DNA of 44,274 bases from Deltaproteobacteria bacterium (lineage in GTDB: Bacteria > Desulfobacterota > GWC2-55-46 > S146-80), in the NCBI GenBank assembly GCA_015492305.1, contig WGFJ01000012.1, positions 1 to 44,274 on the forward strand. The letters run 5' to 3'. Made by a program: the position numbers and the translations under genes. The notes beneath the pieces were generated by a model that made no database searches, was not told the DNA's origin, and saw nothing but the letters and a program-made list of their open reading frames with translations. The stretch's first letter is position 1, and each line of letters opens with the position of its first letter. Below, one piece after another: positions 3,848 to 32,995 of the stretch.

Positions 3848-5248
3848 ATGGTAAGAACAAGGTTTGCACCCAGTCCAACAGGGTATCTCCACATAGGCGG
3901 GGCAAGGACAGCGCTTTTCAACTGGCTCTTTGCAAGGCACCACAGGGGCAGTTTCATCCTCAGGATAGAGGACACGGATGTTGAGAGGTCCACGGAAGAG
4001 GCCACACAGGCCATCCTTGATGCCATGGAGTGGCTTGGCCTCAAGTGGGACGAAGGTCCCTACTTCCAGAGCAAGAGGCTCCACCTCTACAGGGAGCATG
4101 TGGAAAGGCTCCTTGAGAGGGGGCTTGCCTACAGGTGCTACTGCACACCGGAGGAACTGGAGGAGAGGAGGAAGAGGGCCCTTGAGGAGGGAAGGCCCCC
4201 GAGGTACGATGGCAGGTGCAGGGACAGGAAGGACCGGCCAGACCTCCCCCATGCCATAAGGTTCAAGGTCCCGAGGAATGGGGCCACCATCGTGAGGGAC
4301 CTCATAAAGGGGACGGTATCCTTCGACCACTCAGAGATAGAGGATCTTGTGATCCTCAGGAGCGATGGGATGCCCACCTACAACCTGTGCGTTGTTGTGG
4401 ATGATGCCCTCATGGGGATAACCCATGTGATCAGGGGGGACGACCACCTGAACAACACACCCAAGCAGATACTCCTCTACGAGGCCTTTGGCTACAAGGT
4501 GCCAGAGTTTGCCCATGTCCCGATGATCCTGGGTCCTGACAGGACACGGCTCAGCAAACGCCACGGTGCAACATCGGTAACCGCTTACAGGGAGATGGGG
4601 TACCTGCCTGAGGCCATGGTGAACTACCTGGTGAGGCTCGGGTGGTCCTACGGCGATCAGGAGATCTTCTCCGTGGAGGAGCTCATTGAGAAGTTCTCCC
4701 TTGAGAATGTGGGCAGATCCTCTGCCGTCTTCAACCCGGAGAAGCTCCTCTGGCTCAATGCCCATTACATAAAGGAGAAGGACGACAGGGAGCTTGCAGA
4801 GCTACTCGTTCCCTTCCTTGAGAAGAGGGGATACAGGGCCAGAGGGGATGAAAGGCTCCCGAAGATCGTAAAGACCCTGAAGGAGAGGGCAAAGACCCTT
4901 GAAGAGATGGCAGAGATGGCAGACTTCTACTTTGCAGAGGAGATCGAATACGATGAGGAGGCAAGGAAGAGGTTCCTCACCCCCGAGAGGCTGGAGATCT
5001 TCGATGCCCTCATAGAGGGCCTTTCAGGGCTTGAAGAGTTCACGGAGAAGGGGATAGAAGGGGTCTTCAGAAGGATCATGGAGGAGAAGGGCCTTAAGCT
5101 CGGAAAGCTCGCCCAGCCTGTGAGGGTGGCTGTGACTGGAAGGACCGTGAGCCCCGGCATATTCGAGACCCTTGAGGCCCTGGGAAAGGAAAGGACCATC
5201 AAGAGGCTGAAGAAGGCAAGGGATCTCTTAAAGGAGGCCACCCTATAG
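3848..5248 (+). CDS. gltX: Glutamate--tRNA ligase
   Basis: [16 protein letters not shown] (HIGH), LSKR (KMSKS-like), CYC zinc region, C-terminal anticodon-binding domain. Confidence 0.97.
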
Positions 5249-5611
5249 CCCTATCAGGCCCTTTACAACCCTCACAAGCTCTTCCGTGTTTATAGGCTTT
5301 GAGATGTAGCCGTCGAAACCTTCGCTCAGGATCCTCTCCTCATCCCCGACCATGGCAGATGCGGTGATGGCCACAACAGGGATGGAATTAAATCCCTCCA
5401 TGGATCTTATCTCCTTCATGGCCTCTATCCCATCCATACCGGGAAGGCCTATATCCATGAGGATAAGATCAGGAGGGGGGTTCCTCCTCACCCACTCTAT
5501 GGCGTCCATGCCTGTCTCCACCTCTGCAACCGAGATCCCGTGAAGGGATAGGACATCCCTGACAAGGATCCGGTTCAGCAGGTTGTCCTCCACAAGAAGG
5601 ACACTTGCCAT
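5243..5611 (-). CDS. Single-domain response regulator (DivK/CheY-like receiver)
   Basis: [21 protein letters not shown] (phospho-Asp), AITA, YISKP. Confidence 0.92.
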
Positions 5612-8506
5612 TCATTCCTCCCCTATGACAGAGACCCTGTCGCCGCCACCTTCCCTCACCCTCTCTACCTCCTCTTCAAGCCTCTCAAGGAGGGTCTGCC
5701 TCTCCTTTCCATCCACGGGAAAACCACCTATCCCGATGCTCGCGCTGAACCTGAACCCCCCTTCACCTGCAAACCTTCCGATGATCAACCTCAACTTCTC
5801 ACCCACCACCCTGGCAGGCTTCTTTGGTGTATCGGGAAGGAGGAGGACAAAGACCGAGTCCTCATACCTTGCCAGGATGTCGGCCTTCCTTATGTGCTTT
5901 TCTATAAGGGCTGAGAGGGACTTTATCGCCTCTTCCCCCTTTGCCGTTCCATACCTCTCAACATAGCTATCAAAGCGGTCTATCCCTATCATCATGAGGG
6001 AGAAGGTCCCCCCATAGCGCTTGCCCCTCGCTATCTCGTGATCTATCCTCCTCTTTATATACCGCCTGTTGAAGGTGTTCGTCAAGGGATCTATCATCTT
6101 TGCCCTCGAGGGGTAGAGCATCTCAAGCCTTCTCACCTCTTCCAGTATGTCATCGACACTGAACCCCTTCTTTACCACACCCGCAATGTCACCCCTGAGC
6201 CTTCCTGCCTCTTCAGGTGTGAGGTCCTTTGCAGTATAGACGATTATGGGGATATCCTTGGTATCCGGGTTCCTCCTCAGACCGTCTATCACCTGGAACC
6301 CGTTCATCCCGGGCATCATGAGGTCGAGTATTATGAGGTCCACATCCTTGGTTGTGGCCATCTCAAGGCCCTCCTTGCCTGTGGATGCCTTGAGCACACC
6401 GAAGCCCTCTTTCTCCAGTATCCCTGAAAGGAGGGCCTGTGTCTCAGGGTCGTCATCTATGATGAGGATGGTGAAGCTACCCCTCTTCACCCTGTCTATG
6501 AAACTTATGGACTGGAGGGCATTCAGGAGGGTTTCCTTGTCCACGGGCTTTGTGATGTACTCACAGGCCCCGAGGCTGAAACCCTTCTTCATGTCATCAA
6601 GGGCAGAGACTATGACAACAGGGATCTCCCTGGTCTCTGGATCCTTCTTCAGTTCTCTCAACACCTCCCATCCATCCCTGTCAGGGAGCATGAGGTCAAG
6701 GGTTATGGCAAAGGGCTTGAGCCTCCTTGCCATCTCAAGGGTCTCCTCCCCGCTGCCCACCCCGACCACACTGTAGCCCGACCTCCTGAGGTAGGACATG
6801 ATGAGCTCCCTCAACTGGTCGTTGTCCTCCACAACGAGGACAAGGGGGTACTCCTCATGTATGGCTGCAGGCTTTACCTTTATCTCCCTCTTCACAGGTG
6901 GAACACCCTCTGCCGGTATGGTGAAGGTGAAGGTAGAGCCCTTGCCGTATTCGCTCTCCACCCAGATCCTGCCGCCATGGAGCTCCACAAGCCTCTTGGT
7001 CACAGAGAGGCCAAGGCCTGTCCCCTCTATGCTCCTCCTCTCCTCATCACCTATCCTCTCAAACTCCATCCACACCTTGGGAAGGTCCTCCTTCCTTATA
7101 CCTATCCCTGTGTCCTTCACGGATACAACAAACTCGCCCCCCTCAAGCCATGCCTCCACATCCACCCTCCCGCCATCCCTGTTGAACTTCACCGCATTGG
7201 TCAGGAGGTTGAGGAGTATCTGTCTCAGCTTTGCCCTGTCGCCCTTTATTGAGCCCCTGTAATCGACCCTGGAGTGGATCTCTATATCCCTTGCCTCTGC
7301 CACGGGCCTGACGGTGGTGATGGCCTGCTCTATGAGGGGCTCAACCTCCACATCCTCCTTGTTGAGCTCCATCCTCCCTGCCTCGATCTTCGATATATCG
7401 AGGATGTTGTTTATGAGCTGGAGGAGGTGCTTTCCACTTGTGTGGATGTAGTTCACATACTCCATCTGCTTGTCATTGAGGGGGCCAAAGGCCTGCCCCT
7501 TCAGGAGTTCTGAAAAGCCTATCACCGAATTGAGGGGTGTCCTCAGTTCATGGGATACGGTGGCAAGGAACCTGTTCTTCGTCTCATTTGCCTTCCTCAA
7601 TTCTGCATTGACAAACTCAAGCTCAAGCCTCCTCCTCTCAAGCTCCTCATTTGCCTGACGGAGGTGTTCGGTCCTCTCCATGACCTTCTTCTCAAGGTCC
7701 CTGTAGGACTCCTCCAGTTGATCGGCCATTATGTTGAACTCGGAGGCCATTACTCCTATCTCATCCATCTTCTCAACGGGTATCCTCTTCGAGAGGTCAC
7801 CAGAGGCTATGGCCCTTGCTATCTCTATCACCTTGTTGAGCCTCCCCCCTATCTCCCTTGATATGAAGAGGGTTGCAAGGAAGCCGCTGACCGCTCCCAG
7901 CACGGTAAGGAGGAGGAGGGAAAAGAGATACCTCTCCGTTCTGCCCTTTATCCCTTCCCTTGCCTTCTCCATGAGGTCCATTTCATGTTCCACAACCTTT
8001 TCGGCCAGGGCAGAGAAGCTATCAAACCTCCTCAACTGGATCCCGAGGGCCACATCCATTGCCTCCCCGTACCTTCCCTCCTTCAGGGCGGGGATGATCA
8101 CCTCCTCCCTCGTCTTCTTGAAGTCCTCCCAAAGGGTCTTTATCTCCTCAAGGAGCTCCCTTGTCCGGGGATCGATCCACTCCATGCCGAGGAGGGAGCC
8201 TATCTGACCGTCTATGCTCTTTGTGGTCTCTTCCACCTCCTTGAGGTAGGATGAGAAATCCCCCTTCTTCAGCAGGGTTGTGAGGAGTGCATTCCTCACC
8301 TTGTACAGATCCTTTGTGAGACATGAAACGGCCGATACGGCTGCCACCCTCCTCTGGTAGAGGAAGTCGGTGTAGTCCTCCATCCAGAAGGCGTAGAAGT
8401 AGCTCGTTCCGGCAAGGAGGAGGTAGAGGGTCACACCCCCTGTGAAGGTGAGGAAGAGCTTGTCCCTCACCTTCAGGGTCTTCATCTTTTTCACGAATCC
8501 TTCCAT
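5612..8506 (-). CDS. Membrane hybrid histidine kinase: four-helix sensor-HAMP-HisKA-HATPase-REC-REC-degenerate GGDEF
   Basis: Two TM segments; HAMP (DEIGVMASEFNIM); H-box SHELRTPLN; N, G1 and G2 boxes; receivers ITLDLMLP and IILDLMMP; C-terminal DPLTNTFNRR...RKADILARYEDSVF. Alternative start at 8485. Confidence 0.9.
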   Translation of the reverse strand: MEGFVKKMKTLKVRDKLFLTFTGGVTLYLLLAGTSYFYAFWMEDYTDFLYQRRVAAVSAVSCLTKDLYKVRNALLTTLLKKGDFSSYLKEVEETTKSIDGQIGSLLGMEWIDPRTRELLEEIKTLWEDFKKTREEVIIPALKEGRYGEAMDVALGIQLRRFDSFSALAEKVVEHEMDLMEKAREGIKGRTERYLFSLLLLTVLGAVSGFLATLFISREIGGRLNKVIEIARAIASGDLSKRIPVEKMDEIGVMASEFNIMADQLEESYRDLEKKVMERTEHLRQANEELERRRLELEFVNAELRKANETKNRFLATVSHELRTPLNSVIGFSELLKGQAFGPLNDKQMEYVNYIHTSGKHLLQLINNILDISKIEAGRMELNKEDVEVEPLIEQAITTVRPVAEARDIEIHSRVDYRGSIKGDRAKLRQILLNLLTNAVKFNRDGGRVDVEAWLEGGEFVVSVKDTGIGIRKEDLPKVWMEFERIGDEERRSIEGTGLGLSVTKRLVELHGGRIWVESEYGKGSTFTFTIPAEGVPPVKREIKVKPAAIHEEYPLVLVVEDNDQLRELIMSYLRRSGYSVVGVGSGEETLEMARRLKPFAITLDLMLPDRDGWEVLRELKKDPETREIPVVIVSALDDMKKGFSLGACEYITKPVDKETLLNALQSISFIDRVKRGSFTILIIDDDPETQALLSGILEKEGFGVLKASTGKEGLEMATTKDVDLIILDLMMPGMNGFQVIDGLRRNPDTKDIPIIVYTAKDLTPEEAGRLRGDIAGVVKKGFSVDDILEEVRRLEMLYPSRAKMIDPLTNTFNRRYIKRRIDHEIARGKRYGGTFSLMMIGIDRFDSYVERYGTAKGEEAIKSLSALIEKHIRKADILARYEDSVFVLLLPDTPKKPARVVGEKLRLIIGRFAGEGGFRFSASIGIGGFPVDGKERQTLLERLEEEVERVREGGGDRVSVIGEE

Positions 8507-9063
8507 AGGGCCTCCATCTTAAAGGTCTCTGCTCCAAGCAATCCCTTGACAGTCTCCTTGAGGGTCTCCATATCTATGGGCTTGATGAATATGCCATCCA
8601 CAAGGCCTCTCAGGTCCTTAACCTCTTCAGGGTAGGCCGTCACCACAAGGATCCTCATGTCCCTTGTGATCTCCATTGACCTCACCTTCCTTATGACCTC
8701 CTTCCCATCGACCCTTGGCATCTTTATATCGGTAACAAGGACATGGGGCCTCCACTCCCCTATCCTTATGAGGGCCTCGTAGCCATCCCTGGATGCCTCC
8801 ACCTCACAGTCTTTAAGGATGCCAAGCCCATCCACAAGCATGCGAAGGGTGAAGGGATCGTCCTCCACAACAAGGATCCTCTTTCTGGAGGGGATGGCAT
8901 TGCATTGGGCAAGGAACCTCTTGAACTCCTCCCTGGGTATCCTGTAGTGGCCCCCAGGGGTAAGGATGGCCCTGAGCTTGCCCTCAGAGATCCACCTCTT
9001 GATGGTGTTGACGGTAACGCTGAAGTACTGGGCTACCTCACCGGTGGTAAGGAACCGTTTCAT
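8491..9063 (-). CDS. Response regulator with N-terminal excisionase/BldC-like (MerR-type) HTH and C-terminal receiver
   Basis: FLTTGEVAQYFSVTVNTIKRWISEGKLRAILTPGGHYRI, then RILVVEDD...VTDIKMP...IKP. Confidence 0.88.
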   Translation of the reverse strand: MKRFLTTGEVAQYFSVTVNTIKRWISEGKLRAILTPGGHYRIPREEFKRFLAQCNAIPSRKRILVVEDDPFTLRMLVDGLGILKDCEVEASRDGYEALIRIGEWRPHVLVTDIKMPRVDGKEVIRKVRSMEITRDMRILVVTAYPEEVKDLRGLVDGIFIKPIDMETLKETVKGLLGAETFKMEALWKDS

Positions 9064-9099
9064 GTTTTTACACTTTTGACGGTTTTGATAGTTTGGTCA
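9064..9099. repeat. Four tandem imperfect 9-bp direct repeats (consensus GTTTTGACA), probable operator
   Basis: gtttttaca|cttttgacg|gttttgata|gtttggtca, abutting the ATG of the HTH-REC gene. Confidence 0.75.
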
Positions 9100-9124
9100 T
9101 ACTACAGTTCCCCTGCCCTGTCAA
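9096..9124 (-). promoter_or_regulatory. Putative sigma70 promoter of the HTH-REC/kinase/receiver operon
   Basis: TTGACA-17 nt-TATGAC on the minus strand; the -10 overlaps the promoter-proximal repeat. Confidence 0.55.
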
Positions 9125-9146
9125 GGAAATAAAAGGGAGAAAGGGA

Positions 9147-9923
9147 TCAGAAGAAGGGGTTGTTTTCCCTCTCCTCGCCAACGGTTGTGGCAGGCCCGTG
9201 TCCCGGGAGGAGGATGGTGGGGTCAGGGAGGGTGAGGATCCTCTCCCTTATAGACCTGAGATGGATGGGGTAGAGTGAAGGGGGGTTACTCCTCCCTATG
9301 GAGCCTGCAAAGAGGGTGTCCCCTACAAGGCAGACCCCATCTGTAAGGTAGGAGAAGGAGTCCTGTGTGTGGCCGGGTGTGGCAAGGCACCTTACCAGCA
9401 TCCCCCCTGCCCTCACCTCCTGCCCATCCACAAGGGACCTTCCCCTGTAGACAGGGACAGAGCACTCCTTGAGGACCCTTTCAAGACCTCCGGTATGGTC
9501 ACCATGGCCGTGGGTGAGGAAGATGGCCCTCAGGGTTATACCCCTCTCCCGAAGGGCATCGAGTACAGCCTCAGGGTTGCAGGCCGTATCGATGAGGATG
9601 CCATCACCCCCCTTGAAAAGGATGTAGGCCTTCACCTCGTAGCCACCGATGTAGCCCCTTATGGTGACAAGCCTCCTATCCACCTCAGGGGGCAGGGGGG
9701 CCGGCTGGTAGCTTCCCTCTGCAATGGCAAGGAGCCTATCGGCCTTCAGACCCAGGACCCTGGCAATGGCCATCACCTCCTCCCTTCGAGGCCTCTTGCC
9801 GGAGAGGATGGCAAGGAGCCTCTCCCTGGGGATGGCTGTATCGGAGGAGAGCCTTTCCCTGTCGATGCCGAGCCCTGAAAGGGCCTTCTCCACTATGTCC
9901 GAGAACTCGTCTTCAAGGACCAC
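9147..9923 (-). CDS. MBL-fold metallo-hydrolase (glyoxalase II-like) with N-terminal XRE-like HTH
   Basis: THGHGDH, TPGHT, GDTLFAGSIG, PGHG motifs; start reassigned to GTG 9923 (GGAGG SD) because the longer ORF overlaps the cytochrome gene. Confidence 0.85.
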   Translation of the reverse strand: MVLEDEFSDIVEKALSGLGIDRERLSSDTAIPRERLLAILSGKRPRREEVMAIARVLGLKADRLLAIAEGSYQPAPLPPEVDRRLVTIRGYIGGYEVKAYILFKGGDGILIDTACNPEAVLDALRERGITLRAIFLTHGHGDHTGGLERVLKECSVPVYRGRSLVDGQEVRAGGMLVRCLATPGHTQDSFSYLTDGVCLVGDTLFAGSIGRSNPPSLYPIHLRSIRERILTLPDPTILLPGHGPATTVGEERENNPFF

Positions 9924-9943
9924 TTTAACCCTCCGGAAGTATG

Positions 9944-10675
9944 TCACCTTACCCTCCCCATGAGGCTGAGCACATAAGATGTGAGGTGCCACCTCTCCTC
10001 CTCTGTGAGTGAGACGGCAAAGGATGGCATGGTTGTTCCATCCACACCGATGGTTATGGAGAGGTATATGTCCTCCACCCTTGGACCCCTGTTTATGATG
10101 CCATAGGTGAAGTTTGCAGGCCTGACAGGCCTGCCCCACACATCAAGGAGTAACCCAGCAGCCTTGCCACCACCCCTGCCATCCACACCATGACACACGG
10201 CACACCTCGTCCTGTACAGGGCCTTCCCCTTCTCGATGGATTCAGGGGTTCCAACAAACCCCGGGACCTTCACCTCCTTTACCAGGGGCCTTCCTGGACT
10301 CTCCTCCTCCCACCTGTCTGAGAAGGTCTTTATGTAGGCTATAACCGCATCCTTTTCGGGCTCTGGAAGGAGTCTGAAGGAGGGCATGGATGTGAGGGGA
10401 AGTCCCTGATCAATCACCCTCTTGAGATCCGAATCAAGGGGAAGGGAACCCCTTGGTGTGGACTTGAACTTGAATATCCCGGTTGTGAAGTCCCTGGGCT
10501 TCACGATGAGGTCCCTGGCGGCAATGCCATTTCCATCACCTTTCTCCCCGTGACAGCCCACACAGTACCTCTCGTAGACCTCCCTGCCCATTGCCACTTT
10601 TGACGGCTGTCCATCTACAGGGATGGGCCGCATCAGAAGGAAGGCAAGGAACACAAAGGGGCCTCTCCATCTCAT
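9944..10675 (-). CDS. Exported dihaem cytochrome c
   Basis: Signal peptide; CVGCH and CAVCH, each followed by a MPSF distal Met; ATG 10675 behind GGAGGTG. Confidence 0.9.
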   Translation of the reverse strand: MRWRGPFVFLAFLLMRPIPVDGQPSKVAMGREVYERYCVGCHGEKGDGNGIAARDLIVKPRDFTTGIFKFKSTPRGSLPLDSDLKRVIDQGLPLTSMPSFRLLPEPEKDAVIAYIKTFSDRWEEESPGRPLVKEVKVPGFVGTPESIEKGKALYRTRCAVCHGVDGRGGGKAAGLLLDVWGRPVRPANFTYGIINRGPRVEDIYLSITIGVDGTTMPSFAVSLTEEERWHLTSYVLSLMGRVR

Positions 10676-10712
10676 CTCCCCACCTCCTGCAATGGAGTTA
10701 TCCAGGGTGATA

Positions 10713-10728
10713 CGCAAGAGGCATACCT
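10713..10728 (-). promoter_or_regulatory. Possible sigma54 (-24/-12) promoter for the cytochrome c gene
   Basis: AGGTATG-cctc-TTGCG with exact GG-N10-GC spacing; deviates from the TGGCAC consensus. Confidence 0.4.
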
Positions 10729-10744
10729 TCCACCCAAACAGGGA

Positions 10745-10773
10745 TTGACAAGGTAGAGGGGTTAGGATAATCT
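10745..10773 (+). promoter_or_regulatory. Putative sigma70 promoter of the pnt(-trehalose) operon
   Basis: TTGACA-17 nt-TAATCT about 30 nt upstream of GTG 10805. Confidence 0.65.
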
Positions 10774-10804
10774 TACCATAAAGACCTCAAAAAGGGGAAA
10801 CATT

Positions 10805-12220: not shown

Positions 12221-13588
12221 ATGAAAGCCCTTGTAGAACTCATCTACCTCCTTTCTGTGATACTCTTTGTTGCAGGCCTCAGATACCTCAACTCCCCTGC
12301 AACGGCAAGGAGGGGAAACCTCCTTGCATCCGTGGGGATGGCCCTTGCCATCGCAGCAACCCTTGCCGGAAAGGGGATCAGCCACCTGTGGATCATCCTC
12401 GCAGGTCTCCTTGCCGGGTCCATCATAGGGGCTGTGGCTGCAAGGAAGGTGAAGATGACCGCCATGCCCCAGATGGTAGGGCTCCTGAACGGACTTGGTG
12501 GTGGCGCTTCTGCCCTTGTGGCTACAGGGGAGTTTGTGAGGCTGAGCCCTTCCATCCCCCTCGATACGGTGGTCACCATCATCCTCAGCCTCCTCATAGG
12601 TGGTGTCACCTTCACGGGAAGCCTCGTTGCCTTCGGTAAGCTCCAGGGCCTTGTGAAGGGGACCCCCACAGTCCTCCCCCTCCACAGGGCTGTAACAATC
12701 CTCCTTTCCATCGCCTTCCTCCTCCTCTCCTTCTCCCTCCACATCTCACCCCTTGCTGTCTTCACCACCATGGCCATCATATCCCTCATCCTCGGGGTCC
12801 TCCTCGTCATACCCATAGGTGGGGCCGATATGCCCGTTGCCATATCACTGCTCAACTCCTTCTCCGGTCTTGCCGCAAGCGGGGCAGGGTTCGTCCTTAA
12901 GAACAACATGCTCATCGTTGCAGGTGCCCTTGTCGGGGCGGCAGGGATGATCCTCACCTTCATCATGTGCAGGGCCATGGGAAGGTCCCTGCTCCATGTC
13001 CTCTTCGGTGCCTTCGGGGGGAAGGAGGAGCTTGCAGAGGAGGCAGGGGAAAGGCGTGTGAGGTCCATAGATGTTGAAGAGGCGGCCATGATCCTTGCCT
13101 ATGCCAGGTCCGTCATCATAGTGCCTGGATACGGTATGGCCGTTGCCCAGGCCCACCATGCCGTAAGGGAGCTTGCAGATGAGCTTGAGGCAAGGGGTGT
13201 GGAGGTGAAGTTCGCCATCCACCCTGTGGCAGGCAGGATGCCGGGCCACATGAATGTCCTCCTCGCAGAGGCAAATGTCCCCTACTCGAAGCTCTACGAC
13301 ATGGACGACATAAACCCTGAGTTTGAGAGGACCGATGTGGCCCTTGTCATAGGGGCAAGCGATATAGTGAACCCGGCAGCACGCCACAAGAAGGGAAGCC
13401 CCATATACGGCATGCCCATACTGGAGGTGGACAGGGCAAGGCAGGTCATCGTGATCAAGAGGAGCCTGAGCCCTGGCTTCTCAGGGGTGGAGAACGAGCT
13501 CTTCTACAACCCCAAGACGATGATGCTCTTTGGCGGAGCCAGGGATGTCGTCCAGGAGCTCATAAAGGAGGTGAAGAGGCTTGACTGA
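12221..13588 (+). CDS. pntB: NAD(P)+ transhydrogenase subunit beta
   Basis: MTAMPQMV, GGADMPV, PGYGMAVAQA, HPVAGRMPGHMNVLLAEA. Confidence 0.96.
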   Translation: MKALVELIYLLSVILFVAGLRYLNSPATARRGNLLASVGMALAIAATLAGKGISHLWIILAGLLAGSIIGAVAARKVKMTAMPQMVGLLNGLGGGASALVATGEFVRLSPSIPLDTVVTIILSLLIGGVTFTGSLVAFGKLQGLVKGTPTVLPLHRAVTILLSIAFLLLSFSLHISPLAVFTTMAIISLILGVLLVIPIGGADMPVAISLLNSFSGLAASGAGFVLKNNMLIVAGALVGAAGMILTFIMCRAMGRSLLHVLFGAFGGKEELAEEAGERRVRSIDVEEAAMILAYARSVIIVPGYGMAVAQAHHAVRELADELEARGVEVKFAIHPVAGRMPGHMNVLLAEANVPYSKLYDMDDINPEFERTDVALVIGASDIVNPAARHKKGSPIYGMPILEVDRARQVIVIKRSLSPGFSGVENELFYNPKTMMLFGGARDVVQELIKEVKRLD

Positions 13589-14237
13589 GGATGTGAGGCC
13601 CTTTGTTGTGAAGGACTGCACCCTTGTGGCCATTGCAACCGGTGACAGGGCCCAGAACCTCAAGGAACTCAGGGAGAGGCTCCTGACCATCCACCCGGGA
13701 AGCATATACTACCACTTCTGGGGTGGCCACCTCCGCCCCAAGTTTGTTGATCCCGAATACAACAACGACTTTGCAGCATGGGTGAAGCATGCCCTCCATG
13801 ACACGGCCCTGGCAGAGCGCCTTGCCATAGTGGACCCCACTTGGTTCCCCAACATAGAGGACCTGAGGAAGGAGGTCCTTGAGATCATAGAGGAGAGGCT
13901 TGATGAGACGGAGTGGATCCCCTGGGCAAAGAGGGAGGAGCAGTTCCACTTCATAAGGGCCCAGATGATCATCTTCAGCACAAGGTGCCTCATAAAGAGA
14001 CCGGAGGACCTCCTCAGGATGATCCCCCACCTGTCTGAAGGGAGCATCTTCTACCACTTCATAGATGCAAGGAGGAGGACAGAAGGGGGGGTGAACGACT
14101 TCTGTGCCTGGCTGCATCTTTTCGGCGAGAGGTACCAGGACCTCTGTGCAAGGCTCTGTGCCATAGACCCCTACTTCGTCACCCTTGCTGAACTGAGGGA
14201 AGAGCTCCTTTCCGTCCTGAAAGGGTACTTCCAGTGA
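13581..14237 (+). CDS. DUF5752-like protein (TreT-associated)
   Basis: Internally duplicated SIYYHF...NDFAAW / SIFYHF...NDFCAW; TTG start behind GGAGGTG; directly upstream of treT. Confidence 0.8.
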   Translation: MTEDVRPFVVKDCTLVAIATGDRAQNLKELRERLLTIHPGSIYYHFWGGHLRPKFVDPEYNNDFAAWVKHALHDTALAERLAIVDPTWFPNIEDLRKEVLEIIEERLDETEWIPWAKREEQFHFIRAQMIIFSTRCLIKRPEDLLRMIPHLSEGSIFYHFIDARRRTEGGVNDFCAWLHLFGERYQDLCARLCAIDPYFVTLAELREELLSVLKGYFQ

Positions 14238-15478
14238 CGGAACTCCTGGAGACATACGCCCCCATTGCAGGGGCAGAGGAGATAGAGAGGATAAGGCAAC
14301 TCTCCCAGCACCTCAGGGGGGCAAGGGTGGTCCATGTAAACGCAACGAGGGTTGGTGGAGGGGTGGCAGAGATACTCTCAAAACTGGTCCCCCTCAAGAA
14401 GGAACTGGGCCTTGAAGTCCACTGGGAGGTGATAAAGGGTGACAGGGACTTCTTCCACTGCACAAAGTCCATACACAACGCCCTCCACGGCACCCACATA
14501 GACATATCCTCGGAGATGCTGAAACACTACGAAGAGACGAACAGGAGGAACGCTGAAGAACTGCAACCCCTCCTGAGGGAGGCAGACTTCGTCTTCATCC
14601 ACGACCCACAGCCGGCAATGATACAGCGCTTCATCCCGGAAAGGAAGGGGAAATGGATCTGGAGGTGCCACATAGACATCAGCCATCCCTACAGGCCTGT
14701 ATGGAAGTACCTGAGGGAGTCCCTCCTCTCCTACGATGCAAGTGTCTTCCACATCGCCGATTTCGCCCACTCCCTCCCCCACCTCCAGTATGTGATACCC
14801 CCGAGCATTGACCCTCTGAGCGAGAAGAACATAGATCTGCCGGAAGAAGAGATCCAGTCCGTGGCAGACCGCTTCGGCCTTGACCTGGAAAGGCCCATGA
14901 TCATCCAGGTCTCAAGGTTCGACCGCTTGAAGGACCCCATAGGGGTGATCCATGCCTACCGGCTGGTGAAGACCTTTGTACCCTCCCTGCAGCTTGTCCT
15001 TGCCGGCGGGATCGCAGCCGATGATCCAGAGGGAGAGGCCGTGTTCGAGGAGGTCACCATCGCTGCTGGAAACGACCCGGACATACACCTGCTCCTCCTC
15101 CCGCCCGATGCCCACAGGACGATAAACGCCCTCCAGAGGATGGCTGAGATAGTGCTTCAGAAGTCCATAAGGGAGGGCTTTGGCCTCACCGTCACCGAGG
15201 CCATGTGGAAGGGAAGGCCCGTTGTGGGGGGGAACACCGGGGGGATAAGGCTTCAGGTGATAAACCACCACACAGGCTTCCTCGTTGACACACCGGAAGG
15301 GGCTGCCCTCAGGGTGAGATACCTCCTTCGCCATCCCAACATAAGGGAGGAGATGGGGAGGAAGGGCAGAAGGTTTGTAAGGGAGAACTTCCTCATCACC
15401 CGTCAGTTGAGGGAGTACCTCACACTCATGCTCATACTCCTCCACGGTGATATGGAGAGGCTCGAGATAGGAGGGTAA
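14234..15478 (+). CDS. treT: Trehalose glycosyltransferring synthase TreT (GT4)
   Basis: HVNATxxGGGVAEIL, IHDPQP, WRCHID, PPSIDPLSEKN, QVSRFDxxKDP, QKSIREGFGLTVTEAMWK. Confidence 0.92.
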   Translation: MTELLETYAPIAGAEEIERIRQLSQHLRGARVVHVNATRVGGGVAEILSKLVPLKKELGLEVHWEVIKGDRDFFHCTKSIHNALHGTHIDISSEMLKHYEETNRRNAEELQPLLREADFVFIHDPQPAMIQRFIPERKGKWIWRCHIDISHPYRPVWKYLRESLLSYDASVFHIADFAHSLPHLQYVIPPSIDPLSEKNIDLPEEEIQSVADRFGLDLERPMIIQVSRFDRLKDPIGVIHAYRLVKTFVPSLQLVLAGGIAADDPEGEAVFEEVTIAAGNDPDIHLLLLPPDAHRTINALQRMAEIVLQKSIREGFGLTVTEAMWKGRPVVGGNTGGIRLQVINHHTGFLVDTPEGAALRVRYLLRHPNIREEMGRKGRRFVRENFLITRQLREYLTLMLILLHGDMERLEIGG

Positions 15479-25508: not shown

Positions 25509-26912
25509 ATGAAACTTGCCACCCTCCTGCAGGACCACAAAAGACCCCAGACCCTCCACAAGGTCTTGATAGTAGACGACGAACCAGGGGTAAGGGCCTC
25601 CCTTGCGGTGATCCTGGAAGAGGAAGGCATCGGCTTCTATGAGGCCCCGAGCGGTGCAAGGGCCGTAGAGATCTTCCAGGAGACAAGGCCTTCGGTGGTG
25701 CTCCTTGACCTTGTCATGCCGGGGATGGACGGGATGGAAACGATGGAAAGGCTCAAGGAGATCGATCCAGAGATCCCCATCATAATCATCACCGGCCACG
25801 GGGATGTCCCCACAGCGGTGGATGCCATAAAGCGGGGTGCCTATGAGTTCCTCCAGAAGCCCATAAACATCGAGGAGTTCAAGATCACCCTGAAGAGGGC
25901 CATAGAGAAACTGGAACTGGAAAGGGAGGTAAAGAGGCTCCATTCCCATGTGGAGACCTCCATAGAGGGGATGATGGGAAGGAGCGAGGCCATCAAGAAG
26001 GTGATAGAACAGATCCAGCGGATTGCATGGAGCGACCTCTCCGTCATGATCCAGGGCGAGACAGGGACAGGCAAGACCCTTGTTGCCAGCATCATCCACA
26101 ACCTCAGCAATCGATCAAGGGGCCCCTTTGTGAAGGTGGACATAGGGGCCATCCCGGAGACACTGGTCGAGAGCGAACTCTTCGGATACGAAAAGGGGGC
26201 CTTTACAGGGGCAGCAAAGAGGAAAAAGGGCCTCTTCGAGTCCGCCCATGGCGGCACCATCTTCATAGATGAACTGGAAAACATGTCCACCTATGTCCAG
26301 AGCAAGCTCCTCCATGTTGTGGAGGAGAAGAGGATCTATCCCCTTGGTGCGACCCGGCCGGTGGAGGTGGATGTAAGGATCATTGCAGCCACAAATGAGG
26401 ACATAAAAAGGAATGTGAAGGAGAAGCGCCTGAGGGAGGACCTCTTCTTCCGCCTCAGTGAGTTCATCATCACCCTCCCTCCCCTGAGGGAGAGGATTGA
26501 GGATATACCCTTCCTGGCCCAGAGGTTCCTCATGGAGGCAGGGGAGGAACTCAACAAGCAGGTGAGGGGCATATCGAAGGAGGCCATGGACCGTCTCATG
26601 AAATACCCATGGCCTGGCAATGTGAGGGAACTCAGGAACATAGTGAGGAAGGCGGTCCTCCTTGCCGATGGTGAGGTGATAAGACCGGAATCCATAGAGT
26701 TCCTCTTTGGAGACAGCCAGGATGATGTAATAGACTCCCCCCTCATGCCCCTCAAGGAACTATCCACCATAGCCGCCAAGAAGGCAGAGAAGCGCGCCAT
26801 AAAGAAGGCCCTGGAGATGACAAAGGGCAACAAGTCCAGGGCAGCGGCAATCCTCCAGATCGACTACAAGACACTCCTCACAAAGATAAAGGAGTTCGGA
26901 CTCCAGCCATAG
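25509..26912 (+). CDS. Sigma54-dependent activator, NtrC family (REC-AAA+-Fis HTH)
   Basis: LLDLVMP receiver, GETGTGKT, ELFGYEKGAFTGA, IFIDE, WPGNVREL, GNKSRAAAILQI. Confidence 0.95.
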   Translation: MKLATLLQDHKRPQTLHKVLIVDDEPGVRASLAVILEEEGIGFYEAPSGARAVEIFQETRPSVVLLDLVMPGMDGMETMERLKEIDPEIPIIIITGHGDVPTAVDAIKRGAYEFLQKPINIEEFKITLKRAIEKLELEREVKRLHSHVETSIEGMMGRSEAIKKVIEQIQRIAWSDLSVMIQGETGTGKTLVASIIHNLSNRSRGPFVKVDIGAIPETLVESELFGYEKGAFTGAAKRKKGLFESAHGGTIFIDELENMSTYVQSKLLHVVEEKRIYPLGATRPVEVDVRIIAATNEDIKRNVKEKRLREDLFFRLSEFIITLPPLRERIEDIPFLAQRFLMEAGEELNKQVRGISKEAMDRLMKYPWPGNVRELRNIVRKAVLLADGEVIRPESIEFLFGDSQDDVIDSPLMPLKELSTIAAKKAEKRAIKKALEMTKGNKSRAAAILQIDYKTLLTKIKEFGLQP

Positions 26913-26953
26913 CTATGGAAATCGTTCCATAGGTTATGGAATCCCTTCCATAA
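26913..26953. promoter_or_regulatory. Tandem palindromes TATGGAA-N4-TTCCATA; probable upstream activator sequences
   Basis: ctatggaa-atcg-ttccatag (26913-26932) and ttatggaa-tccc-ttccataa (26934-26953); centres 21 bp apart, upstream of the sigma54 site. Confidence 0.75.
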
Positions 26954-27003
26954 TCCCCTCCACACCCCCTCCCTCAAGATGACGATACAACAGGATCTTC
27001 ATC

Positions 27004-27021
27004 TTGGCACCTTCCTTGCAT
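27004..27021 (+). promoter_or_regulatory. Sigma54 (-24/-12) promoter of the chemosensory operon
   Basis: TTGGCAC-cttcc-TTGCAT with GG-N10-GC spacing; GGAGGT SD and ATG 27062 downstream. Confidence 0.88.
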
Positions 27022-27061
27022 AAGAGCCGTTGGGATCTATGAGGCAACAGGGAGGTAAGGG

Positions 27062-27304
27062 ATGAAGATAGGTAAGGAACTGACCATCTATCGAGTGGGA
27101 GAGATCTGCAGAGTCCTTAGAGAGGAGCTGAGGGATTATGAGACAGTGGTGGTCGATGCAACGGAGGTGGAAGAGATAGACACGGCAGGGACCCAGCTCC
27201 TCCTTGCCCTCAAGAAGGCATGTTGCACCCGGAGGAAAGGACTGGATCTCAGGCTCTCCGAGAGGGTAAAGGGGTTCCTCTCCTCCATCGGGGTTGAGCT
27301 ATGA
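27062..27304 (+). CDS. STAS domain protein
   Basis: ELTIY...[21 protein letters not shown]. Confidence 0.85.
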
Positions 27305-28461
27305 AGGTATGGCAGAGACCAATGGCCAGGATCCTCGCACCTCTGCTTCTGCCCGTCCTTCCCGCCTTTATCTCCAGCCCGACCCTGAGGATACCCCTCA
27401 CCCTCTTTCTCTACCTGGTGGCCGGTGTCATCACCTATAGCATCGTCAAAAGGAGCCTCCAGGCCGCAGAGAACATGGAGGCAGAGATCAGGAAGGAGGA
27501 GATCTCCAGCTTCGAAGAGATCATAGAACCCATTGCAAGGTCCCTCCAGGAGAAGACGCGGCTTATCCCTGTCTTCACCAGCCAGCTCAGCGAGGTCATA
27601 CAGCAGACAGAGTCTGCCGCCCTGAACATAGGGGAGAGGTTCATGCACATCGTGGAGGAGGCAAGGGCCCAGTCCAAGAAGGCATCAGAGACCTTTACAG
27701 GCTTTGCAGGTGATGGAAAGGGCAACAATGCCCTTCTGGACCTCAGCAAGAAGACCCTTGCAGAGGTGATAGAGAGCCTTAAGGAGATAGCCCATGTCAC
27801 CAGACAGACCCTGAGCGATATGGAGATCATCATAAGGGATGCGGAGAACATAAAGAGCATCGTCAACGAGATGGAGTACATTGCGGAGCAGACAAACCTC
27901 CTTGCCCTCAATGCAGCCATAGAGGCATCAAGGGCCGGGGAGTACGGCAGGGGCTTCAACATCGTGGCCGAAGAGGTGAGGAAGCTCTCGGACAGGTCAA
28001 ACAGGGCCGCCGAGGAGATAGGCCAGCTCATAACCAAGGTGGAGGACGACATAAAGGGTATCTACACAAGGACCCAGAAGAGTGCACAGGACAGCAACAG
28101 GAGGTCCTCAGAGGCAGAAGGCATCGTGGAGGAAACGCTGAGGAAGATAGATGAGGCCATGCACGATGCCAACAGACGCCTCGATGAGCTTGCAGAGGGC
28201 ACAGAGTCCCTTGCAAAGAATATAAGCAGCATAGTCGTGTCTCTCCAGTTCCAGGACATTACCCGCCAGAAGATAGAGCATGTGATAGAACCCCTCAACA
28301 CATTCAAGGAGGAACTGGAAAGGGTGGTGGCAGGTCTCAGGGGTATGAAGGAGAGGATCCATGGCCTTGAAGGGTCTGCCGGGAAGGAGTGGCTTGAGGA
28401 CCTGTACACCATGGAGGAGGAAAGGGATGTGATGAGGAAGGTTCTGAAGGTCGTAAAATGA
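27301..28461 (+). CDS. Atypical short methyl-accepting chemotaxis protein (McpA/CttP-like, no periplasmic sensor)
   Basis: Closely spaced N-terminal hydrophobic helices; [16 protein letters not shown] hairpin; C-terminal [14 protein letters not shown]. Confidence 0.85.
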
Positions 28462-28479
28462 AGAGAAGGGAGGGATAGC

Positions 28480-28845
28480 ATGTCAAAGACGGTCCTGATA
28501 GTGGATGACTCGGTCTCCATGAGACAGATGGTCTCCTTCACCCTAAGGGATGCGGGGTATGAGATCGTGGAGGCCATCAACGGAAGGGATGCCCTCAGCA
28601 AGCTCAAGGGCAACAGGATAGACATGATCATAACGGACCTCAACATGCCCGAGATGGATGGCATCGAGTTCATAAAGCAATTGAGGGCCTGTGCGGAGAT
28701 GAGGTTCACCCCTGTGGTGATGCTCACAACAGAGTCCCAGGAGGCAAAGAAGGAGGAAGGGAGAAGGGCCGGGGCCAGTGGGTGGATCGTCAAACCCTTC
28801 ACCCCGGAGCAACTCGTAGGGGTGGTAAAGAAGTTCGTGAGGTAG
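28480..28845 (+). CDS. cheY: Chemotaxis response regulator CheY
   Basis: VLIVDDS, ITDLNMPEMDG, LTTES, WIVKPF. Confidence 0.92.
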   Translation: MSKTVLIVDDSVSMRQMVSFTLRDAGYEIVEAINGRDALSKLKGNRIDMIITDLNMPEMDGIEFIKQLRACAEMRFTPVVMLTTESQEAKKEEGRRAGASGWIVKPFTPEQLVGVVKKFVR

Positions 28846-28849
28846 TGCC

Positions 28850-30883
28850 GTGGATATGGAGAAACTGGTCAGGATCTTCATCGATGAGGCCCTTGAGAGG
28901 ATCCTTGAGCTGGAGGAGGGCCTCCTTGAGATCGAAAAACACCCTGACAACAGGGAACTGATCAACCTTGTCTTCAGGGCAGCCCACACCATAAAGGGCT
29001 CCAGCGGCACCATAGGCCTCACGGAGATCTCAAAGTTTACCCATTCCATGGAAGAGGTCCTTGATATGCTGCGGGAAGACACCCTGTCCCCGGACAGGGA
29101 GACGATCAATACCCTCCTCAAGGCCACAGATGCCCTGAAGGAGATGGTGGAGAGCCTGGCAGAGGGAAGGACCTTTGACTACTCCAGATGTAACGACATT
29201 GTAGGGAGACTGGAGGAACTGAAGAACAGGGGGAAGGTGAGGGAGTTCAAGATCCTCTTCGCACCCTCCCCGGAGCTCTTCAAGAGGGGGATAGAGCCAT
29301 CCATGATCATGGAGAACCTGAGGGAGATGGGGGAGATCCTCGAGATGAGGGCCTCCCCTGAAAGGGTCCCTCCCATTGAAGAGCTGGACCCTGAAGAGCT
29401 CTACCTGGGGTGGGAGATCCTCTTCAGGACAGACAGGGATGAGGCCGGTATAAGGGAGGCCTTTGAGTTCGTTGAGGATGGCAGCGAGATCAAGGTACTG
29501 CCCGTAACAGAGGGAGAAAAGGAGACCCCCTTCCTCGGTGAGATGCTTGTAAAGGAGGGGGTGGTGGACCCCAGGGATGTGGATGAGGCCCTCAAGTCCC
29601 AGCAGAGGCTTGGAGACATCCTCTTGAAGCAGGGCAAGGTGACCCAGGAGGAACTGGAGAAGGTCGTTGCAAAGCAGAGGGATAAAAAGACCGATTCCTT
29701 CAAGAAGTCCATCACCTCCACCATCCGGGTGGACCTCAAAAAGCTCGATCACCTCGTAAACATCGTTGGTGAGATGGTGATCATCCACTCCATGCTCCAG
29801 GAGGCCATAAACAACAACGGTGCCTCAACCAGGCTCGATGTGCTCTTCGGACAGCTCCAGAGGATAGGGAGGGAGATACAGGAAGGGGTCATGTCCCTCA
29901 GGATGCTGCCGGTAGGGGAGGTCTTCCACAGGTTCAACAGGCTTGTGAGGGAGCTCTCAGAGACAAGGAACAAGGAGATAGAGCTCGTCGTAACCGGGGA
30001 AGAGACGGAACTGGATAAAGGGGTCCTTGAGAAGATCACCGATCCCCTTGTCCACCTCATACGCAATGCAATAGACCACGGCATAGAGGAAAGGGAGGAG
30101 AGGCTGGAGAAGGGCAAACCACCGAAGGGCAGGATCCACCTCAGTGCCTTCCAGATGGGGGATTCCGTATTCATAGAGGTGGAGGATGACGGACGTGGCC
30201 TTGACAGGGAGAAGATCCTGAAAAAGGCCTGCCAGTCAGGGCTTGTCACCGATCCTTCAAACCTCACAGATGAGCAGATCTACGGACTCATATTCCAGCC
30301 AGGGTTCTCAACGGCCGAGAAGGTGACCGACATATCCGGCCGTGGTGTGGGCATGGATGTGGTCAAGAAGAACATCGAGTCCCTCAACGGAAAGGTCTTC
30401 ATCCGGAGCAAGCCCAATGCAGGCACAACCGTATCCATAAAGCTCCCCCTGACCCTTGCCATCATAGATGGCCTCACCGTAAGTGTGGGGGATGAGGTCT
30501 TCGTCATCCCCATCTCATCCGTCGTGGAGTCACTGCGACCGGAGAAGGAGAATGTGAAGACCCTGAATGAGAAGGGAGAGGTCGTGAAGGTGAGGGAAGA
30601 CTACATACCCCTTGTGAGGCTCCATGAACTGCTCGATATCCCGGCAAGGAAGACCGATCCATCAGAGGCCATTGTGGTGGTTACATCCCATGAGGTGAAG
30701 AGATACGGGCTCCTTGTGGACGACCTTATAGGTGAGCAGCAGGTGGTGATAAAGAACCTTGGAGAGGCGATGCCGAAGATCCAGGGCATAGCAGGTGGCA
30801 CTGTCCTTGGAGACGGGAGGGTGGCACTGGTTCTGGACATCTCCGGGATCGTGGAGGTTGCCACATCCCAGACACTGCAATAA
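28850..30883 (+). CDS. cheA: Chemotaxis histidine kinase CheA
   Basis: HPt FRAAHTIKG, HLIRNAIDHGIE, SGRGVGMDVV, LPLTLAI, C-terminal CheW-like domain; start 28850 or 28856. Confidence 0.96.
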   Translation: MDMEKLVRIFIDEALERILELEEGLLEIEKHPDNRELINLVFRAAHTIKGSSGTIGLTEISKFTHSMEEVLDMLREDTLSPDRETINTLLKATDALKEMVESLAEGRTFDYSRCNDIVGRLEELKNRGKVREFKILFAPSPELFKRGIEPSMIMENLREMGEILEMRASPERVPPIEELDPEELYLGWEILFRTDRDEAGIREAFEFVEDGSEIKVLPVTEGEKETPFLGEMLVKEGVVDPRDVDEALKSQQRLGDILLKQGKVTQEELEKVVAKQRDKKTDSFKKSITSTIRVDLKKLDHLVNIVGEMVIIHSMLQEAINNNGASTRLDVLFGQLQRIGREIQEGVMSLRMLPVGEVFHRFNRLVRELSETRNKEIELVVTGEETELDKGVLEKITDPLVHLIRNAIDHGIEEREERLEKGKPPKGRIHLSAFQMGDSVFIEVEDDGRGLDREKILKKACQSGLVTDPSNLTDEQIYGLIFQPGFSTAEKVTDISGRGVGMDVVKKNIESLNGKVFIRSKPNAGTTVSIKLPLTLAIIDGLTVSVGDEVFVIPISSVVESLRPEKENVKTLNEKGEVVKVREDYIPLVRLHELLDIPARKTDPSEAIVVVTSHEVKRYGLLVDDLIGEQQVVIKNLGEAMPKIQGIAGGTVLGDGRVALVLDISGIVEVATSQTLQ

Positions 30884-30893
30884 GGAGGTCTCT

Positions 30894-31382
30894 ATGACAG
30901 CAACAGAAAAAGACCATGGAGAGGAGAAAGAGCAGTTCGTGACCTTTTACCTCAACAAGGAGGTATACGCCATAGAGGCGCTCCGTGTCCAGGAGATCAT
31001 CGAATTGCCGGGTATCACAAAGGTCCCCCACCTTCCGGAGTTCCTCAAGGGGGTCATCAACCTGAGGGGGACAATAGTGCCTGTGGTGGACCTGAAGCTG
31101 AAGTTCGGCATGCGCTCTGAAGGCTACAAGAAACACACCTGCGTCATAGTGACAGAGTTCTCAGGAGGGGTAATGGGCCTTATTGTAGATGCGGTGGCCG
31201 ATGTCCTTCCCCTCTCGGAAAGGGGGATCTCGGCACCACCCTCCTTTGGAACCAGGATAAGGACGGAGTTCATCAAGGGCATGGGCAGGTTCAACAACGA
31301 CCTTGTAATCATCCTGGACATCGAAAAGGTGCTCACCTCTGAAGAGGCATCAGCCCTCTCGGAGGCGGTCTCCCAACCCTAA
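30894..31382 (+). CDS. cheW: Chemotaxis coupling protein CheW
   Basis: [32 protein letters not shown]; start moved to ATG 30894 behind AAGGAGG. Confidence 0.95.
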
Positions 31383-31399
31383 CCCCTGGAGGTGTTACC

Positions 31400-32995
31400 A
31401 TGGATATGAAGATAGGCACACTCCTCAAAGGCATAGCAACCATCCTCCTCATCTTTGCCCTGGCCAATACTGCGGTGGTCTACTACCAGCTCAACAAGAT
31501 GGTAAACGACGGCAGGGTGGTCAACTACTCAGGGATAGTGAGGGGTGCCACCCAGAGGCTTGTGAAACTGGAGATGGCAGGGCACAAGGCAGACGGGCTT
31601 GTGGCAAAGCTCGACAAGATCATCAACGGCCTCATCAACGGTGACGAGGAGCTGAAGCTGCCCAAGGCTGTGGACAACAGGTACCTCACCAAGATGGAGG
31701 ATGTCAAGGAAGGCTGGAAGGAGCTGAAGAAGACCATCATGGAGGCAAGGAAGGACCCTGCCCTCAGGCAGAAGCTCTTCGATGAAAGCGAGAACTACTT
31801 CAAGCTGACCAATGCCGCTGTCTTCGCTGCCCAGGACTTTTCAGAAGGGAATGTGACCAGGCTCAAGACCATCCAGATAGTCCTCTTCCTCCTGAACCTT
31901 GTTGTACTTGTGGCCATCTGGATAATCAGCCAGAAGAAGATCGCCTCACCCCTCATGGACCTTTCCCAGAGGATAAAGGCCCTTGCCGGAGGGGACCTCA
32001 CCGTGGATATCCCCTACTGCAGCAAGAATGAGATCGGCGTGATAGGGTGCGAGCTCCAGAAGATGGTAAAGAGGATAAGGGATGTTATCACCCAGACAAA
32101 GGAGGCATCCAATCAGGTCTCGGTGGCCTCTGATCAGCTATCGGATGCCACCCAGAACTTCTCCCAGAGGGTCACCGAACAGGCGGCCTCCATAGAGGAG
32201 GTATCCTCCACCATGGAGGAGATGGCCGCTTCCACGAGGCAGACCGCTGAGAATGCAAGGGAGGCAAACAAGCTTGCCCAGAACACGAACGACCTTGCAG
32301 ACTCGGGTTCACGGGTGATGGAAGAGACCATAAAGGCCATGGACGAGATAAACAAGGCATCCGGGAAGATAGCCAACATCTCCAATGTGATAGAGGAGAT
32401 AGCCTTCCAGACAAACCTCCTTGCCCTCAACGCAGCCGTTGAGGCAGCACGGGCAGGGGAACACGGCAAGGGCTTTGGCGTGGTGGCTTCTGAGATAAGG
32501 AACCTCGCCCAGAGGACCACTGAATCGGCAAAGGAGATAACAGCCCTCATAGAGGACAGCGTGGAGAAGACGGGAAGGGGCGTTCAGCTGGCGGAGGAAC
32601 TGGGCAAGAAGCTCGTTGAGATCGGGACAGGGGTAAAGAAGGTGGCAGGTCTCATGGATGAGATAGCGGCAGCAGCGGGTGAACAGGCCTCCGGGATAAA
32701 CCAGGTGAACACCGCCATATCCCAAATGGAACAGGCAACCCAGCAGAACGCATCCCTCGTGGAGGAGACAGCGGCATCGGCAGAGGAGCTGGCAGCCCAG
32801 GCCAGGGAACTCATGAATCTCATAGCCTTCTTCAAGGTTGCAGAGAAGGCGGAGGCAGAAAAGGGCAACGGGAAATGGCTTGAAAGGGAGGGGGAAAAGG
32901 CCCCAGCCCCCCATCCACCCTACGAGGGGAAGGGGCTGGAAGGGCCTTCATCAACCATGGAGGTAAGGGGAAATGGAGAGTTTGAGGAGTTTTAG
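31400..32995 (+). CDS. Transmembrane chemoreceptor (PilJ/NarX-like sensor, HAMP, signalling domain, C-terminal pentapeptide)
   Basis: Two TMs; [14 protein letters not shown]; [26 protein letters not shown]; ends EFEEF. Confidence 0.93.

Follow-up and report, generated by a model that had tools for sequence, protein, structure and literature searches.

A transmembrane hybrid histidine kinase with a degenerate PleD/PopA-like tail: a candidate c-di-GMP receptor in a deltaproteobacterial three-gene operon

We describe here a hybrid sensor histidine kinase encoded in a stretch of DNA of 44,274 nucleotides (hereafter the window), which corresponds to positions 1 to 44,274 of contig WGFJ01000012.1 in assembly GCA_015492305.1 of a Deltaproteobacteria bacterium (Desulfobacterota). 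The kinase gene lies on the minus strand and joins an N-terminal sensor, a transmembrane segment and a histidine kinase core to two receiver (REC) domains and, at the C-terminus, a GGDEF domain, which is the domain type of enzymes that synthesize cyclic di-guanosine monophosphate (c-di-GMP). We argue that this PleD/PopA-like tail probably makes no c-di-GMP and instead binds it at the allosteric I-site, a reading drawn from sequence. The gene and its domains, with residue numbers in amino acids (aa) and the basis of each assignment in brackets, are as follows.

5612..8506, minus strand: hybrid sensor kinase gene, 964 aa (P0001), with the order 4HB_MCP, transmembrane segment, HAMP, HisKA, HATPase, REC, REC, degenerate GGDEF (open reading frame, Pfam)
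7985..8476, minus strand: 4HB_MCP_1 four-helix-bundle sensor, N-terminal, aa 11-174, with a predicted location outside the membrane (Pfam, E 4.6e-10)
7856..7933, minus strand: transmembrane segment 2, aa 192-217 (Kyte-Doolittle 19-residue mean 2.41)
7709..7867, minus strand: HAMP, aa 214-266 (Pfam, E 4.2e-11)
7376..7579, minus strand: HisKA phospho-acceptor domain, aa 310-377 (Pfam, E 2.5e-25)
7550-7552, minus strand: codon of H319, the phospho-histidine of the H-box HELRTP (motif)
6908..7243, minus strand: HATPase_c catalytic domain, aa 422-533 (Pfam, E 9.1e-32)
6497..6841, minus strand: REC1, ~aa 556-670, with the full acceptor set E560/D561, D604, S634 and K653 (Pfam, alignment to PleD REC1, motifs)
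6134..6469, minus strand: REC2, aa 680-791, with D684/D685, D728, T758 and K780 (Pfam, motifs)
5639..6097, minus strand: degenerate GGDEF domain, aa 804-956 (Pfam, E 4e-25)

The H-box with H319, the HATPase_c domain and the fused receivers bearing D604 and D728 together make this protein a hybrid histidine kinase, and the HisKA domain is 85-98% identical within the small clade of closest relatives described below. A weaker first membrane segment, judged by eye only, lies at about aa 16-41 ahead of the sensor, and the placement of 4HB_MCP_1 between this segment and the strong one at aa 192-217 fits a sensor outside the membrane. The preliminary description of this locus had called the protein a membrane kinase with an outside sensor, and the order of the sensor, the strong segment and HAMP agrees with that reading. 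It had also taken positions 5612-6860 as a REC-REC-GGDEF tail, which the Pfam matches bear out. Pfam finds no Hpt domain in the kinase protein; the frames that hold the genome's four Hpt matches are 558-727 aa long, and the match inside the window is CheA. There is thus no evident sign of a classical His-Asp-His-Asp relay, and direct transfer from H319 to the regulators encoded in the same operon is the simpler reading. NCBIfam holds no specific model for the kinase, its best matches (TorS, HrmK, BarA and the PleD family) all falling far below their cut-offs.

Membership of the GGDEF superfamily is clear from the Pfam score (PF00990, 88.9 bits vs a cut-off of 23.8), and the residues of the tail were mapped by a phmmer alignment to PleD of Caulobacter crescentus, the best sequence match in the PDB, which covers REC1 and, in a second stretch, REC2 plus GGDEF (E ~6e-34). 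The positions on which the argument turns are listed here.

5849..5863, minus strand: EDSVF, aa 882-886, replacing GG(D/E)EF (PleD GGEEF, 368-372) (motif, ungapped PleD alignment)
5978..5986, minus strand: GID, aa 841-843, replacing DID, with G841 at PleD D327 (motif, ungapped PleD alignment)
5879..5890, minus strand: I-site RxxD, read as RKAD (R873, D876), equivalent to PleD R359/D362 (RAID) (motif, ungapped PleD alignment)
6026..6028, minus strand: R827, at PleD R313 (PleD alignment)
5795..5797, minus strand: K904, at PleD R390 (PleD alignment)

The active site (A-site) is lost at nearly every position that matters to catalysis. In PleD, D327 is the first metal-binding Asp, and N335 and D344 bind guanine; here these positions hold G841, V849 and E858, and PleD K332 corresponds to D846. 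The Asp and Glu positions of the signature hold Ser and Val in EDSVF. PleD K442 and R446 are replaced by R951 and G955, and only D329 (D843) and R366 (R880) are retained. The catalytic magnesium ions are coordinated by the Asp and Glu of the signature, whose substitution inactivates the cyclase WspR, and the beta and gamma phosphates are bound by K442 and R446 (PMC3509222). Since all these metal, guanine and phosphate positions are replaced, cyclase activity of the tail is very unlikely, which extends to five further residues the earlier claim, made from EDSVF and GID, that the protein is not a cyclase.

The I-site presents the opposite picture. RKAD stands five residues (ILARY) ahead of EDSVF, exactly where the preliminary description had placed it, and because RKAD, EDSVF and GID all align with PleD without a gap, RKAD occupies the homologous position and is no chance motif match. 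The primary pair R359/D362 is joined by R827, equivalent to PleD R313, which together with R390 is an accessory I-site residue in PleD. The combination of a degenerate A-site with RxxD five residues ahead of the signature is the pattern of the PopA/SgmT type of c-di-GMP receptor.

The domain that carries these motifs is folded and under selection and is no decaying remnant, as judged from sequence identities and a predicted structure. Its identity to the three other members of the clade (59, 55 and 46%) is near that of the HATPase domain (76, 54 and 51%) and of REC2 (70, 54 and 53%) and above that of the sensor domain (52, 35 and 38%). An AlphaFold2 model of aa 549-964, built on an alignment of 24 rows, has a mean predicted local distance difference test score (pLDDT) of 84.4, with 86-97 in the GGDEF part. 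Foldseek places PleD first for the whole tail (E 5e-35), with a template modelling score (TM-score) of only ~0.36 since the arrangement of the domains differs, whereas chains of the GGDEF domain alone score 0.84-0.91 when normalised to the target; for 3ign the modelled domain gives 0.90 with a root-mean-square deviation of 1.4 A.

To place the kinase among its relatives we draw on several searches. A search of 40 related genomes belonging to the same class yielded counterparts of 37-53% identity, complete or nearly complete in length, from 12 family-level groups, and a word-indexed protein search added further members, mostly metagenomic, whose source names, where given, are mostly "Deltaproteobacteria bacterium". 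A scan of genome contigs that used the tail alignment gave for the most part distant kinases with two receivers, and its one close relative was already in the set, so that it left the number of orthologues unchanged. The comparisons below use an orthologue alignment of 24 tails (the window protein and 23 loci, some of them near-duplicates) and a wider set of 54 non-redundant family tails. Conservation of RxxD in orthologues had been chosen in advance as the check on predicted c-di-GMP sensing, and both residues come through it unchanged: the R359 position is Arg in 24/24 tails and the D362 position Asp in 24/24. They belong to only about 10 invariant columns in a domain of 161 residues. At the R313 position Arg is found in 23/24 tails, and at the R390 position there is Lys in 22/24 and Arg in 2/24.

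The A-site shows the reverse. In the same 24 tails the PleD residue is kept 18 times at D327, three times at K332, 18 times at N335, eight times at D344 and never at K442 or R446, the last position being Gly in 24/24 orthologous tails and in 50/54 of the family. In PopA/SgmT-type terms, the I-site is fixed among orthologues and the A-site varies. At the D344 position Asn occurs in 15/24 tails, and most orthologues that still read GGDEF carry it there. Because the members reading GGDEF lack the phosphate-binding pair, as does SgmT, the whole family looks non-catalytic or badly impaired, and the window protein looks like a late stage of A-site decay. The GGDEF signature alone would therefore mislabel these orthologues as cyclases in automatic annotation.

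Within the 54 family tails, GG(D/E)EF survives in 17 and RxxD in 45. RxxD persists in 28 of the 37 tails whose signature is degenerate; eight of the other nine read RxxN (one subgroup with a dCache sensor and the signatures GGSTF and GGSSF) and one is gapped there. A quick maximum-likelihood tree, which we treat as provisional, groups the window protein with three other distinct sequences (Shimodaira-Hasegawa-like approximate likelihood ratio support 98), and this clade displays four different decayed signatures (EDSVF, AYSTF, GDFTF and NDIIF) beside an RxxD present in 4/4. On the same tree the state of the signature changes at least seven times, four of these changes being forced by well-supported branches. 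An exhaustive search of representatives with the GGDEF domain returned six at E <= 1e-30, so the degenerate clade of the window protein stays small.

The receivers also differ in their conservation. The REC2 acceptor D728 is present in 24/24 orthologous and 54/54 family tails, and the REC1 acceptor Asp in 6/24 orthologous tails; 23 of these tails include REC1, and in 17 of them it is a pseudo-receiver. Across the family, Gly or Ser takes the place of the REC1 acceptor Asp in 16/17 tails that keep GG(D/E)EF, and the Asp is present in 30/37 tails with a degenerate signature; this co-variation is a pattern on a tree among kin sequences and not a statistical test.

The ligand required by this reading is very likely available, to judge from the gene content of the genome. 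The assembly (1.94 Mb, 97.5% complete) contains 11 GGDEF matches, of which six carry canonical GGEEF/GGDEF signatures, nine HD_5 matches (HD-GYP type) and 13 PilZ matches, so that this organism very likely produces, breaks down and senses c-di-GMP. No EAL match was found in the 97.5%-complete assembly, and breakdown would rest on HD-GYP-type enzymes alone. All catalytic residues checked are present in the six canonical GGDEF domains, except that one has Ser at the D344 position. This exception is a 351-aa GAF-GGDEF protein with a canonical signature (L006:1483-2535, minus strand; G000:C38, GGDEF match 8781-9248). Ser at PleD D344 we take to be the mark of the "Hypr" GGDEF enzymes that make 3',3'-cyclic GMP-AMP (3',3'-cGAMP) in Deltaproteobacteria, and the genome may thus make a second cyclic dinucleotide. 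The genome also encodes two paralogues of the window kinase (G000:C55:28555-30729, L009, and G000:C85:5960-7966, L007), which are 40-42% identical to it from the kinase core through both receivers to GGDEF and have degenerate signatures (RRDEF and GDDEI) with RxxD retained; the second lies ~0.8 kb downstream of an HD_5 (HD-GYP-type) gene (C85:4626-5120).

The kinase is part of a conserved three-gene operon, as gene order in the window and in relatives indicates. Its partners are both receiver proteins.

5243..5611, minus strand: single-domain response regulator, 122 aa (P0002), with its ATG directly after the kinase stop codon (open reading frame, Pfam)
8491..9063, minus strand: HTH_17/excisionase-type DNA-binding domain plus REC, 190 aa (P0003), with a 16-nucleotide overlap with the kinase start (open reading frame, Pfam)

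A REC gene 45-56% identical to P0002 stands directly downstream of the kinase in 15/23 relatives' loci, with a 39% identical one in two more, and a counterpart of the helix-turn-helix (HTH)-REC gene, 39-48% identical, lies upstream in 7/23. These counts over 23 loci are lower bounds, several of the loci stopping at contig edges.

Three characterized proteins provide the framework for interpreting this architecture. PleD, the best PDB match over all three domains, shares the I-site residues R359, D362 and R313 with the window kinase. It is, however, an active cyclase, whereas every substrate or metal position checked carries another residue here, and its REC2 lacks the acceptor Asp that is invariant in this family as D728. 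PopA, a PleD paralogue of the same organism, resembles the tail in its C-terminal REC-REC-GGDEF order, its degenerate A-site and its retained RxxD, and it binds c-di-GMP with a dissociation constant of ~2 uM, binding being abolished by R357G (PMC8020655). It differs in being free-standing and soluble, and both receivers of the window kinase keep the acceptor Asp; this comparison is one of descriptions and not of sequences. The window protein fits the PleD/PopA type of regulator in part: the order of the three domains matches and PleD is the best match, but REC2, a non-phosphorylatable adaptor in that type, keeps its Asp, REC1 is the pseudo-receiver in most of the orthologues, and the unit is fused behind a transmembrane histidine kinase instead of being free-standing.

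SgmT of Myxococcus xanthus resembles the whole protein in being itself a histidine kinase with a receiver and a C-terminal degenerate GGDEF domain (GGGVF, with the intact RxxD RHPD and without the K442/R446 pair) that binds c-di-GMP, binding being abolished by R763A, and it is paired with a DNA-binding response regulator (PMC3509222). As described in that paper, SgmT is cytoplasmic, has a GAF sensor and one receiver and is an orphan gene, in contrast to the 4HB_MCP sensor, transmembrane segment, HAMP, two receivers and conserved operon found here. By its architecture the window kinase is not an orthologue of SgmT (no GAF match, membrane-bound, two receivers), a judgement again made on description and not on sequence. 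The earlier likening of the kinase to PopA and SgmT is nonetheless apt on the evidence of the two papers (PMC8020655, PMC3509222), and a dead signature combined with RxxD is a common, known class of receptor type and no rarity (PMC3509222).

Taken together, the probable c-di-GMP receptor would work as follows. Judging from its domains, the four-helix bundle outside the membrane would sense a ligand and signal through HAMP to the kinase core, which would autophosphorylate H319. The phosphate may then pass to the internal receivers at D604 and D728, to the co-operonic regulators P0003 (HTH-REC) and P0002 (single REC), or to both, as the conserved gene order suggests. Inside the cell, c-di-GMP made by the canonical cyclases of the genome would bind R873 and D876 with help from K904 and R827, and the bound dinucleotide might bridge to R827 of a second tail, cross-linking or immobilising the tail within the kinase dimer in the manner of PleD and PopA. 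By analogy, the outcome could be a shift in phosphate flow, with altered access of the receivers or regulators to H319, or a sequestering or clustering of the kinase in the cell as for SgmT and PopA.

Several observations weigh against this reading, and some of them favour a nucleotide-blind tail. In such a tail the degenerate GGDEF domain would bind no nucleotide and would act, for the phosphorylated REC-REC unit, as an output module with a structural, dimerising or partner-binding role, with RxxD kept by inheritance or for folding or contacts. First, RxxD by itself does not discriminate: it is aligned in 11/11 GGDEF matches of this genome, of which six are canonical and the other five degenerate or partial, and in 209/241 GGDEF domains drawn from the nearest 150 representatives of 50% clusters. 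These 241 comprise 135 intact domains with RxxD, 17 intact without it, 74 degenerate with it (83% of the 89 degenerate ones) and 15 degenerate without it, on a strict signature pattern that scores GGEEL, AGDEF and the like as degenerate and in a sample biased to query-like sequences. The persistence of RxxD may therefore be due in part to inheritance or a structural role, and conservation of the domain as a whole would also be explained by protein binding. Second, the accessory contacts are incomplete. The PleD accessory R390 is Lys (K904) here, and R178, which in PleD is the REC2 partner of the I-site, aligns with Phe, so the PleD-type GGDEF-REC2 cross-link cannot be reproduced exactly. Third, the clade of the window protein comprises four distinct sequences only, and a related clade has lost the Asp (RxxN, 8/54 tails), which makes the I-site dispensable for some members. 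Finally, in SgmT c-di-GMP altered the localisation of the kinase and left autophosphorylation and phosphotransfer in vitro unaffected, and the known phenotypes did not depend on its GGDEF domain (PMC3509222). Any effect of c-di-GMP on phosphotransfer is accordingly speculative, and although the kinase and sensing parts of the earlier proposal stand as predictions from sequence, its claim that the protein "integrates" an outside ligand with c-di-GMP is worded more strongly than this precedent allows.

We nevertheless regard a nucleotide-blind tail as possible yet rather unlikely. Although RxxD alone is unsurprising, what is informative is its persistence while the active site decays: R873 and D876 sit among the few invariant columns of a domain in which every substrate-binding position is drifting. 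The same RxxN clade that speaks against a universal need for the I-site also implies that the fold does not need the Asp. Moreover, PopA and SgmT, two tested proteins of this pattern, both use the I-site Arg to bind c-di-GMP (PMC8020655, PMC3509222).

That the I-site binds another cyclic dinucleotide such as 3',3'-cGAMP, instead of or besides c-di-GMP, we consider quite improbable. The GAF-GGDEF enzyme with the presumed Hypr Ser at D344 provides a conceivable source, but Asp is retained there in five of the six canonical cyclases, and no sequence sign of adenine recognition was seen in the tail. To our knowledge, moreover, the ligand of known I-sites is an intercalated c-di-GMP dimer, held through contacts between guanine and Arg. 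That the domain still functions as a cyclase, of the diguanylate or another nucleotidyl kind, by way of a non-canonical motif is scarcely credible, since the fold, intact in the model, and the retained R880 and D843 are set against the loss of both metal ligands (D327G, and Ser at the E370 position), of the guanine contacts (N335V, D344E) and of the phosphate pair (K442R, R446G), and against the inactivation of WspR by substitutions in its signature.

The genes flanking the operon are unrelated housekeeping genes (gltX, a metallo-beta-lactamase-fold protein and pntAB). A promoter and terminator scan of positions 4900-10800 found none on the minus strand, with fewer sites than in shuffled sequences, and a TTGACA noticed by eye ~60 nucleotides upstream of the HTH-REC start was given no weight. 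Rfam identifies no RNA family within the window, and hence no c-di-GMP riboswitch nearby. Farther away, positions 25509-35358 hold a sigma-54-dependent response regulator (25509-26912) and, after it, a complete cluster for chemotaxis with a methyl-accepting chemotaxis protein (MCP), CheY, CheA, a PilJ-type MCP, CheR, CheD and CheB. Three frames have no Pfam match at the thresholds used (13560-14255, minus strand, 231 aa; 36811-37116, minus strand, 101 aa; 39825-40226, plus strand, 133 aa); the last overlaps an opposite-strand frame of 246 aa and may be no gene. The region at 40.2-41.9 kb is occupied by a 540-aa frame.

The idea that a degenerate GGDEF domain senses c-di-GMP is textbook knowledge in this field, and our prediction is of a known type that adds no new principle. 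What it contributes is the family-wide fixed I-site beside repeated decay of the A-site, the joining of this module with a transmembrane kinase, and its place in a set of three genes that is conserved. Few histidine kinases read c-di-GMP directly. RavS is reportedly another kinase that binds c-di-GMP. A full-text search, which was not made by the exact architecture name and lay outside subscription journals, yielded SgmT and no other kinase that reads c-di-GMP through the I-site of a degenerate GGDEF domain.

A more far-reaching view, which we think unlikely, is that the 4HB/dCache-HK-REC-REC-GGDEF family (HK, histidine kinase) is a stepwise record of how a cyclase output became an input for c-di-GMP that directly gates phosphate flow. 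The phosphate-binding pair would have decayed first, the guanine-binding Asp next, and the signature last and repeatedly, while the I-site stayed fixed; the state of REC1 would have flipped with the signature, and c-di-GMP would lock the double-receiver tail of the transmembrane kinase. If this were true, such gating would make the kinase a coincidence detector of an outside ligand and an inside messenger, a property that SgmT did not show in vitro.

Under the more modest reading of a kinase that probably binds c-di-GMP at its I-site, the family would supply a transmembrane case where a single protein receives both an outside signal and the cellular level of c-di-GMP. Its members occur in at least 12 family-level groups within one class of bacteria that have small genomes and are mostly uncultured. 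The family also offers, as it occurs in nature, a series of active sites in decay next to an I-site that stays fixed, which would be useful for asking what keeps an I-site functional.

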